Below, piece after piece: positions 13,557-13,995 of a stretch of DNA of 64,000 bases. Position 1 is the stretch's first letter. Each line of letters opens with the position of its first letter. The stretch covers positions 1,467,530-1,531,529 of the forward strand of contig JAZKGD010000001.1 in assembly GCA_040386095.1 (NCBI GenBank). Reading direction: 5' to 3'. The stretch comes from Bacteroidota bacterium. GTDB lineage: Bacteria > Bacteroidota > Bacteroidia > Sphingobacteriales > Sphingobacteriaceae. The notes under the pieces are model-generated. The model did not search any database. It was not told where the DNA came from and was given only the letters and a program-made list of their open reading frames with translations. The translations under genes and the position numbers were made by a program.

Positions 13557-13589
13557 TTTGCAACATATTTACTATTTGTCTTATGTTTG
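13557..13589 (+). promoter_or_regulatory. Bacteroidota sigma70 promoter for the tRNA-like pair
   Basis: TTTG (13557-13560), a 21-nt spacer, then TATGTTTG (13582-13589), matching the -33/-7 consensus. Confidence 0.7.
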
Positions 13590-13636
13590 TATCAAGCAAG
13601 TACAACGAAATCGTTCTTTAACAATTGCTTATACTC

Positions 13637-13746
13637 TGTAGGGTGGTGAAATTGGCAGACACACCTCCTTGTCTCGGTGGTAGAGGAAATGGGAAATCCG
13701 GCAACGGTACAACCACTCTATGAAGGTTCGACTCCTTCCCCTACAG
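13637..13746 (+). tRNA. Atypical tRNA-like RNA 1: GUC (Asp) anticodon, Leu-type D-arm, 41-nt variable region, no encoded CCA
   Basis: Acceptor TGTAGGG/CCCTACA plus G73; D-arm GTG-AAATTGGCAGA-CAC; anticodon arm CCTCC-TTGTCTC-GGTGG; T-arm GAAGG-TTCGACT-CCTTC. Confidence 0.8.
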
Positions 13747-13792
13747 CTCATTGAGTTTTACGTTGTAAGTTAAACGATAACTCAATAAAGAA

Positions 13793-13936
13793 TGTTGGGT
13801 GGTGAAATTGGCAGACACACCTCCTTGTCTCGGTGGTGGGGATCATGGGACAAACGCAATTTATGGGTTGACCACAAATTAATTTTGAATTGCAGCTAAC
13901 TACCCCTTGAAGGTTCGACTCCTTCCCCAACAGCCA
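13793..13936 (+). tRNA. Atypical tRNA-like RNA 2: GUC (Asp) anticodon, Leu-type D-arm, 72-nt variable region, encoded CCA
   Basis: Acceptor TGTTGGG/CCCAACA plus G-CCA. D, anticodon and T arms are identical to copy 1. The variable region is closed by GGGG/CCCC. Confidence 0.8.
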
Positions 13937-13962
13937 GTTTTATAAATAATAAGTTAGTTATG

Positions 13963-13995
13963 AGAAGCGTCCTGGATAGGTCGCTTCTTTTTTTT
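13963..13995 (+). terminator. Intrinsic terminator after the tRNA-like pair
   Basis: AGAAGCG-T-CCT-GGAT-AGG-T-CGCTTCT followed by a T run. Confidence 0.8.

Follow-up and report, generated by a model that had tools for sequence, protein, structure and literature searches.

The locus and its two tRNA-like RNAs

The DNA analysed here is a stretch of 64,000 nucleotides (nt), hereafter called the window, from a Bacteroidota bacterium of the family Sphingobacteriaceae. The region under study (positions 13557-13996) contains two tandem genes for tRNA-like RNAs, designated RNA1 and RNA2, for which the sequence was read as providing one common promoter and one common terminator. They belong to an RNA family with a conserved structure, a set of invariant nucleotides and a linkage to an asnC-like regulator gene and to gatB and gatA. 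RNA1 and RNA2 are proposed to descend from a Leu-like class II tRNA without being decoding tRNAs themselves. The elements of the locus are listed below in window coordinates; lengths are given in amino acids (aa), nucleotides or base pairs (bp).

13010..13483, minus strand: asnC-like regulator of 157 aa, divergent from the RNA genes, with Pfam domains AsnC_trans_reg and HTH_AsnC-type
13557..13589, plus strand: promoter, with TTTG at 13557-13560, a spacer of 21 nt and TAtgTTTG at 13582-13589
13594..13636, plus strand: 5' leader containing a small hairpin, in which AAGCAA (13594-13599) pairs with TTGCTT (13625-13630)
13637..13746, plus strand: RNA1, 110 nt, ending at the discriminator G73
13671..13673, plus strand: GUC at the anticodon position of RNA1, followed by U37 and C38
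13681..13721, plus strand: variable-position domain of RNA1, 41 nt, with a 4-bp basal stem, a 3-bp stem, a junction and a hairpin
13747..13792, plus strand: spacer between RNA1 and RNA2, with a hairpin formed by ATTGAGTT (13750-13757) and AACTCAAT (13779-13786)
13793..13936, plus strand: RNA2, 141 nt up to G73 at 13933, or 144 nt with its encoded CCA
13827..13829, plus strand: GUC at the anticodon position of RNA2, as read from the sequence
13837..13908, plus strand: variable-position domain of RNA2, 72 nt, with 4-bp and 3-bp stems, an internal loop, a 6-8-bp stem and an apical loop
13962..13996, plus strand: intrinsic terminator made up of an 8+3-bp hairpin (13962-13989) and a U run downstream of it

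The control elements were compared across 20 Pedobacter loci. The second promoter box is kept in 18 of them, as TAcaTTTG in 16 and TAtgTTTG in 2; the remaining two have another kind of upstream region. The boxes fit the Bacteroidetes pattern, the consensus of Bacteroides promoters. The consensus promoter announced by the initial annotation is not sigma-70-like, a sigma-70 scan having given nothing above chance. Two complementary leader blocks, AGCAAnT and AnTTGCT, occur in most Pedobacter loci, and the leader would presumably be processed by RNase P. The spacer hairpin has a folding energy of -10.6 kcal/mol (z-score -2.8); as the length and sequence of the spacer vary across the genus, it is probably a processing spacer only. 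The terminator folds at -15.3 kcal/mol (z-score -5.0, equalled by none of 200 shuffles), and a covarying hairpin with a T run occupies its position in 20 of the 20 loci. All the other parts enumerated initially (RNA1, the spacer hairpin, RNA2 with its CCA and the terminator) were found in the sequence. Unlike the stand-alone operon described initially, the locus is not fully independent, because the divergent asnC-like regulator accompanies the RNA genes. An open reading frame (ORF) of 60 aa on the minus strand (13748-13930) was dismissed as a coding gene, the conservation of this region following the paired stems.

RNA1 consists of an acceptor stem of 7 bp that includes U1:A72 and G2:C71, a D stem of 3 bp, an anticodon arm with the loop UUGUCUC and a U29-U41 mismatch in its stem, and a canonical T arm. 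The core of RNA2 is the same, anticodon arm included, with U:A at acceptor pair 4 where RNA1 has A:U. Identical blocks of 41 nt (GGGTGGTGAAATTGGCAGACACACCTCCTTGTCTCGGTGGT) and 21 nt (TGAAGGTTCGACTCCTTCCCC) are present in both; these blocks and the exchange at pair 4 had been pointed out before and are borne out by the sequence. The domain of RNA1 displays the junction GGGAAAU / ACAAC and the hairpin CCG-GCAA-CGG with a GNRA loop. Its basal stems (helices 4 and 5) covary, as does the hairpin within the genus (CCC/GGG, CCU/AGG, CCA/UGG, UCA/UGA), GNRA loops being retained. In RNA2, which is nearly invariant across Pedobacter, the internal loop is GACAAAC / AGCUAAC and the large apical loop contains GGGUUGACCAC. 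For 12 long-form members, drawn from Pedobacter and other families as well as from another class and from phages, RNAalifold gave a structure of 33 pairs, of which 19 show compensatory changes, and GGGUUGACCAC is conserved in 11 of these 12. The extra domain represents a new structured RNA module.

The D arm is nearest to those of the four tRNA-Leu genes of the source genome, in agreement with the Leu-type class II scaffold assigned initially; the discriminator is a G, unlike the A73 of tRNA-Leu. An ordinary class II variable arm is a single hairpin of roughly 10-24 nt, whereas the arm of the present family is a multi-helix domain of 25-140 nt, which places these RNAs outside class II proper in spite of their Leu-like D arm. 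The elements of a canonical cloverleaf are all present (7-bp acceptor stem, D arm with G18G19, 5-bp anticodon stem with a 7-nt loop, T arm with GTTCRANNC); within the family every helix covaries and the T loop is invariant. The thermodynamic fold of RNA1 alone is no better than that of shuffles (z-score -0.67), and a 144-nt stretch starting two bases inside RNA2 has a z-score of +0.59 and shows no cloverleaf. Since single-sequence folds do not differ from shuffles, the case rests on comparative evidence. The motif CACCUCCUU occurs at 13659-13668 and 13815-13824, where it runs from the D stem through position 26 into the anticodon stem of both RNAs. It corresponds to the 3'-terminal sequence of 16S rRNA; the idea of an anti-Shine-Dalgarno mimic was set aside as probably a coincidence, other families carrying CCCUC-type stems.

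Standard tools are blind to the locus at default thresholds. ARAGORN reported no tRNA gene in the window, and a search at the Rfam gathering thresholds gave no match in the whole window. Permissive filters bring out a match of RNA1 to RF00005 (36.3 bits against a cut-off of 29, with an insertion of 38 nt), while RNA2 produces neither an RF00005 match nor anything meaningful in Rfam; Rfam searches with E-value thresholds on eight long-form loci returned nothing relevant. The tRNA-Sec model RF01852, for which at least 47 bits, 8/5 stems and a UCA anticodon would be expected, reaches 20.2 bits on a shifted register of RNA2 whose anticodon is GUC. Y RNA/YrlA, tmRNA and T-box identities were rejected on the lack of an Rfam signal and on the intact anticodon arm. 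The initial annotation knew of no named family; no Rfam family matches, long forms included, and a full-text literature search retrieved no publication describing these RNAs.

Distribution of the family, its regulator and its phage copies

The conservation of the tandem pair is far beyond chance. Of 24 other genomes of the genus, judged to be Pedobacter, 23 keep the pair at 77-91% identity; the remaining one, which is 84% complete, has a 31-nt match only. A covariance model (R1) was built from 17 sequences and used to search 301 genomes of the class. Positives were obtained in 55 genomes from about 17 families, with scores of 71-124 bits and lengths of 106-186 nt (RNA1, 117.4 bits; RNA2, 124.3 bits), and ordinary class II tRNAs do not exceed 64 bits with this model. 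Matches include Chitinophagaceae, Saprospiraceae, Cyclobacteriaceae, Dyadobacter, Fulvivirga, Marinoscillum, Algoriphagus and others, and one member comes from another class of the phylum. The search of Bacteroidota advocated in the initial annotation has yielded homologs with conserved arms, a variable insert and a conserved neighbour, asnC. Members are common in Bacteroidota of soil and freshwater and in the phages of these bacteria, and the family is missed by standard tRNA and Rfam annotation. Tandem copies number from 1 to 5 per locus; five copies of the core pattern are seen in Solitalea longa (L254, 571-1202, about 150 nt apart) and in Pedobacter sp. SYSU D00535 (L205, 4000-5539, about 370 nt apart).

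Covariation was evaluated on 40 distinct sequences originating from the unbiased model search. In this set 98.1% of cells are paired and compensatory changes occur in 15 of 27 pairs, a result reached by none of 500 shuffles and nowhere near attained by slid registers. The variable-position region, 25-140 nt long across the family, contains covarying 4-bp and 3-bp stems, a conserved junction whose two strands read GGRAUAAA and GCUAAC, and a covarying hairpin that is often GNRA-capped; long forms add a large loop with GGGUUGACCAC. C74 is conserved, and the CCA end is frequently encoded.

The asnC-like gene lies divergently upstream of the RNA in 107 of 160 loci belonging to three orders, at a median distance of 153 nt, and many of the other 53 loci involve a contig end or a second RNA copy. 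The member from another class has the same divergent layout, with a regulator 59% identical. Among 80 sampled genomes (38 RNA-positive and 42 RNA-negative), an asnC-like ortholog was found in 37 of the RNA-positive genomes, one of these being an RNA-adjacent pseudogene, and in 6 of the RNA-negative ones. The closest solved structure to the regulator of the window is Escherichia coli AsnC (2CG4; E 6e-37, 130 bits), the next match scoring 81 bits; the two proteins share 46% identity in an ungapped alignment of 149 residues. The best NCBIfam model is likewise AsnC (NF008384), at 172.5 bits and hence under the equivalog cut-off of 227, every other Lrp/AsnC model giving 76 bits or less. By sequence comparison, the neighbour appears to be specifically AsnC-like, with asparagine as its putative ligand. 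In Cytophagales, sufB and sufC come after the asnC-like gene in the same orientation (e.g. L069, L150), and the regulator may head or precede a suf operon there. Among the loci examined, no further conserved neighbour was seen besides asnC and these sufB and sufC genes, and four asnA loci of RNA-negative relatives have no asnC within 1.5 kb. The pseudogene mentioned above (G297:C24:4210-4656) contains five in-frame stops, and the adjoining RNA (C24:4936-5042) still scores 71.8 bits.

Viral contigs were scanned with a pattern and then with the model, which gave 17 true members scoring 80-106 bits, none of them with asnC beside it. As these copies occur without asnC, the RNA would appear to be useful on its own. 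Three of the 17 are located inside phage tRNA arrays of 13-17 tRNAs (L318, 2035-2178; L330, 7301-7451; L379, 871-1023; IMG/VR), in L318 directly after a tRNA-Asn(GUU). All three arrays also carry a normal tRNA-Asp, so the RNA is no duplicate of tRNA-Asp. A blastn comparison of a phage-type member with GenBank cultured phages gave nothing at E 1e-6.

Nucleotides under constraint

Five strong aspartate determinants have been described, G73, G34, U35, C36 and C38 (PMC9976931), and RNA1 and RNA2 possess all five. In the family, U35, C36 and C38 are each present in 40 of 40 sequences, G34 and the discriminator G in 39 each. Regarding other aspartate features, G2:C71 is invariant (40/40) and pair 1:72 is U:A, not G:C; G10 is found in Pedobacter and varies elsewhere, pair 10:25 covarying as G:C, A:U and U:A. 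The AspRS identity set claimed in the initial annotation is consequently near-invariant for G73, G2:C71, G34, U35, C36 and C38, while its G10 is not a family feature. U1:A72 is found in all 40 sequences, and acceptor pairs 3-7 vary. This pair confers amidation of Asp-tRNA-Asn, tRNA-Asp being blocked by G1-C72 and U20a (PMC9976931, PMC2811023). The positions following G18G19 are C, A and G, with U in no member, hence no U20a antideterminant, and so displays both features expected of a GatCAB substrate.

The anticodon loop behaves differently from that of a decoding elongator, for which U33 and a purine at 37 would be expected. Position 32 is a pyrimidine; at position 33, 32 sequences have U, 7 have G and 1 has C; at position 37, U occurs in 32 sequences, G in 6 and C in 2, with no A in any of them. 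RNA1 and RNA2 themselves have U33 and U37. Because these three positions vary and 37 is never A, routine decoding is unlikely. Judged from its sequences, the family seems to keep the signals for aspartate charging and GatCAB amidation and not those for decoding. Both U1:A72 and U37 had been singled out as departures from normal tRNA-Asp; the former, noted then as no more than an oddity, is invariant and is the known GatCAB determinant. The proposal of aminoacylatable RNAs made for something other than routine decoding also fits the conservation of the loop and identity nucleotides, charging being a prediction in this scheme. The source genome has a full tRNA set, and its tRNA-Asp(GUC), encoded elsewhere, is an ordinary class I molecule as had been stated of normal tRNA-Asp.

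These data bear directly on the reading of RNA1 and RNA2 as a specialised tRNA-Asp isoacceptor that decodes on the ribosome, its arm only modulating use. Such a role would be consistent with the GUC triplet, the 7-nt loop, the canonical D and T loops and the placement in phage tRNA arrays. It is made improbable by a position 37 that is a pyrimidine in 34 of 40 sequences and never A, by the G or C at position 33 in 8 of 40, by U1:A72 where bacterial tRNA-Asp has G1:C72, and by the normal tRNA-Asp already held by the genome and the phage arrays; it would also leave the linkage to asnC and GatCAB unexplained. Compared with bacterial tRNA-Asp(GUC), the family has G34, U35, C36, C38, G73 and G2:C71 in common and differs by U1:A72, the Leu-like D arm, the mostly pyrimidine position 37, the variable position 33 and the giant domain. 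Other tRNA-derived molecules kept from translation are the non-proteinogenic tRNA-Gly of Staphylococcus and the tRNA-Other of Bacillus cereus. Those are of normal size and have neither an added domain nor a link to GatCAB or AsnC.

The long arm and G73 would also be compatible with a substrate of SerRS resembling allo-tRNAs, serylated whatever its anticodon. The arm does follow the anticodon stem directly, G2:C71 is present in addition to G73, and allo-tRNAs often have a GUC anticodon (PMC7609411). We regard this reading as extremely unlikely, for the acceptor and T stems are 7/5 with covariation in place of the 8/4 or 9/3 of allo-tRNAs, the D arm is Leu-like and not Ser-like, and SerRS would give no reason to keep G34, U35, C36 and C38 so strictly. 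The resemblance to allo-tRNAs (PMC5389517, PMC7609411) is thus confined to a long arm combined with a non-class-II anticodon, often GUC; those have 8/4 or 9/3 stems and SerRS identity, whereas the present family has 7/5 stems and AspRS determinants.

Association with GatCAB and possible functions

The invariance of U1:A72 led to an examination of gatB. Among the 301 class genomes, every one of the 55 with the RNA has gatB, as do 180 of the 246 without it. It was also found in 5 further RNA-positive genomes, one of them outside the class, for a total of 60/60. The gatA gene was detected in all nine RNA-positive genomes tested, including the source genome, and in neither of two RNA-negative relatives of the same family. 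The dependency is asymmetric: gatB often occurs without the RNA, the RNA never without gatB.

The aminoacyl-tRNA synthetases were surveyed in the 80 sampled genomes. AsnRS is present in 79 of them. GlnRS is found in all 18 genomes devoid of both the RNA and gatB, and is missing from 23 of the 24 genomes with gatB and no RNA, where GatCAB therefore has its canonical glutamine job. Half of the RNA-positive genomes (19/38), the source genome among them, possess GlnRS. The GlnRS-positive genomes, whose translation does not require GatCAB, are distributed as follows.

RNA and gatB: 19
Neither RNA nor gatB: 18
gatB only: 1
RNA only: 0

Counted per family, gatB accompanies GlnRS in 7 of 7 cases with the RNA versus 1 of 14 without it (hypergeometric p about 7e-5), and four families (f1, f8, f28, f47) each hold members with both RNA and gatB and members lacking both. 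The sole sampled lineage combining GlnRS, AsnRS and gatB with no RNA is f42 (G065 and others). Its gatB is unusually divergent, with E-values of about 1e-105 to 1e-108, nearly all other full-length matches being at about 1e-135 or lower. The source genome encodes GlnRS, AsnRS, gatA, gatB, the normal tRNA-Asp and a single bacterial-type AspRS, no second AspRS having been found in it.

From these observations we infer a route in which AspRS would charge the RNA with aspartate, GatCAB would amidate it through U1:A72 and the AsnC-like regulator would exert control, the RNA acting as a dedicated carrier for asparagine synthesis off the ribosome. The probability of this reading is estimated at roughly 45%. 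The route can be summarized as follows. The AsnC-like protein, whose E. coli counterpart senses asparagine, would control the divergent RNA promoter. The transcript would be cut into two tRNA-shaped RNAs, with CCA completed where it is not encoded. The single bacterial-type AspRS would recognize G34, U35, C36, C38 and G73 and attach aspartate. GatCAB would then accept the Asp-RNA through U1:A72, a mark of tRNA-Asn missing from tRNA-Asp, and convert it to Asn-RNA. The pyrimidine at 37, the occasional replacement of U33 and the large variable-position domain would hold the RNA off the ribosome, and the asparagine would be released or passed on.

Several points weigh against this route. The presence of U1:A72 instead of G1-C72 and the non-conserved G10 may weaken aspartylation, G1-C72 being retained in bacterial tRNA-Asp and termed crucial by a review of identity elements (PMC9976931). 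An asparagine-releasing enzyme was not identified, and the scheme of an asparagine carrier leaves the conserved variable-position domain unexplained. AsnB-type genes are present in 71 of the 80 sampled genomes, the source genome included, in a manner unrelated to the presence of the RNA, so the RNA route would not be the sole source of asparagine; many of these genes may be paralogs with other jobs. The tRNA-Asn of the source genome likewise has U1-A72, and GatCAB could be kept for the classical route through a non-discriminating AspRS (ND-AspRS), as has been shown in Bdellovibrio (PMC4206432). The genome counts, finally, are not phylogenetically independent. The idea of RNA-positive genomes lacking asparagine synthetase was abandoned, as AsnB-type genes are found nearly everywhere, and asnA, present in 4 of the 80 genomes, all RNA-negative, is too rare for a conclusion.

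A more elaborate version, which seems possible at odds clearly short of even, would make AspRS, GatCAB and the RNA an RNA-dependent asparagine synthetase working off the ribosome. The RNA would occupy beside asnC the place that asnA holds in E. coli, the extra domain would dock the GatB tail or promote the release of asparagine, and the phage copies would raise the asparagine supply during infection. The GatB tail is near the variable loop in a docking model (PMC2811023).

The same nucleotides could serve binding instead of a substrate role. A regulatory or decoy RNA would bind AspRS and/or GatCAB, or another protein reading the GUC loop, and tune the pathway of ND-AspRS, tRNA-Asn and GatCAB or the AsnC regulon; a variant could operate as a transamidosome-like scaffold or as a sensor of charging status. 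The invariant nucleotides and the linkage to gatB and asnC would be equally expected of a binder, the large conserved extra domain resembles a docking or sensing module, and a classical route may exist since tRNA-Asn has U1-A72. The full acceptor stem, G73, C74 and the frequently encoded CCA are the needs of a substrate and not of a mere binder, and phages carry the RNA among functional tRNAs without asnC, which leads us to consider this explanation rather unlikely.

The charged RNA could also be an aminoacyl donor for a non-ribosomal transferase, aspartate (possibly converted to asparagine) being passed to a peptide, lipid or cell-envelope acceptor, in a manner reminiscent of the non-proteinogenic tRNA-Gly of staphylococci. 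The coexistence of non-decoding features with conserved charging determinants would suit such a donor, and the extra domain could recruit the transferase. We judge this to be distinctly unlikely, as no Fem/MprF-like, cyclodipeptide synthase or LanB-like gene is a conserved neighbour and the link to asnC is left unexplained by a donor role in itself.

Within the proposed asparagine-carrier route, the RNA would work most like the tRNA-Asn of the indirect pathway, as in Thermus, Deinococcus and Bdellovibrio (PMC4206432, PMC2811023), and conceptually like tRNA-Sec. With the former it has in common U1:A72, G73, the missing U20a, the co-occurrence with gatA and gatB and the proposed conversion of Asp to Asn on the RNA. 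It differs by its anticodon, GUC and not GUU, with which an ordinary discriminating AspRS would suffice, by its class II body, 25-140-nt domain and non-decoding loop, and by the dedicated asnC-like control; its product would not feed the ribosome directly. The likeness to tRNA-Sec lies in the conversion, as proposed here, of one amino acid into another on a class II tRNA reserved for this purpose, whereas tRNA-Sec has 8/5 stems, a UCA anticodon and ribosomal use. If the asparagine route is correct, the RNA would be the first dedicated carrier RNA for amino-acid synthesis outside translation, and tRNA-dependent amino-acid biosynthesis would extend past the tRNAs that feed the ribosome. Bacteroidetes are among the clades keeping GatCAB despite having GlnRS and AsnRS (PMC4206432), and the RNA could then explain this retention in the Bacteroidota concerned. 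Should the asparagine reading prove wrong, the link that joins RNA, asnC and gatCAB would still offer a handle testable in cultivable strains.

The surroundings of the locus in the window are as follows. Upstream, the plus strand between 7573 and 12982 carries genes for an ABC transporter ATPase/permease and an HlyD-type membrane-fusion protein, an ORF of 151 aa for which Pfam gave no match and, at 10676-12982, the gene of a Tex-like RNA-binding protein with an S1 domain. The gap that separates the RNA terminator from the following gene contains a perfect 19-nt inverted repeat, CCATATAAGGAATTCAAGG (14072-14090) and CCTTGAATTCCTTATATGG (14120-14138), whose arms are 29 nt apart. Further on, the minus strand (14892-22594) carries two amidohydrolase-family genes (439 and 1012 aa), which adjoin the gene of a 1064-aa outer-membrane beta-barrel protein with a carboxypeptidase-regulatory-like domain.

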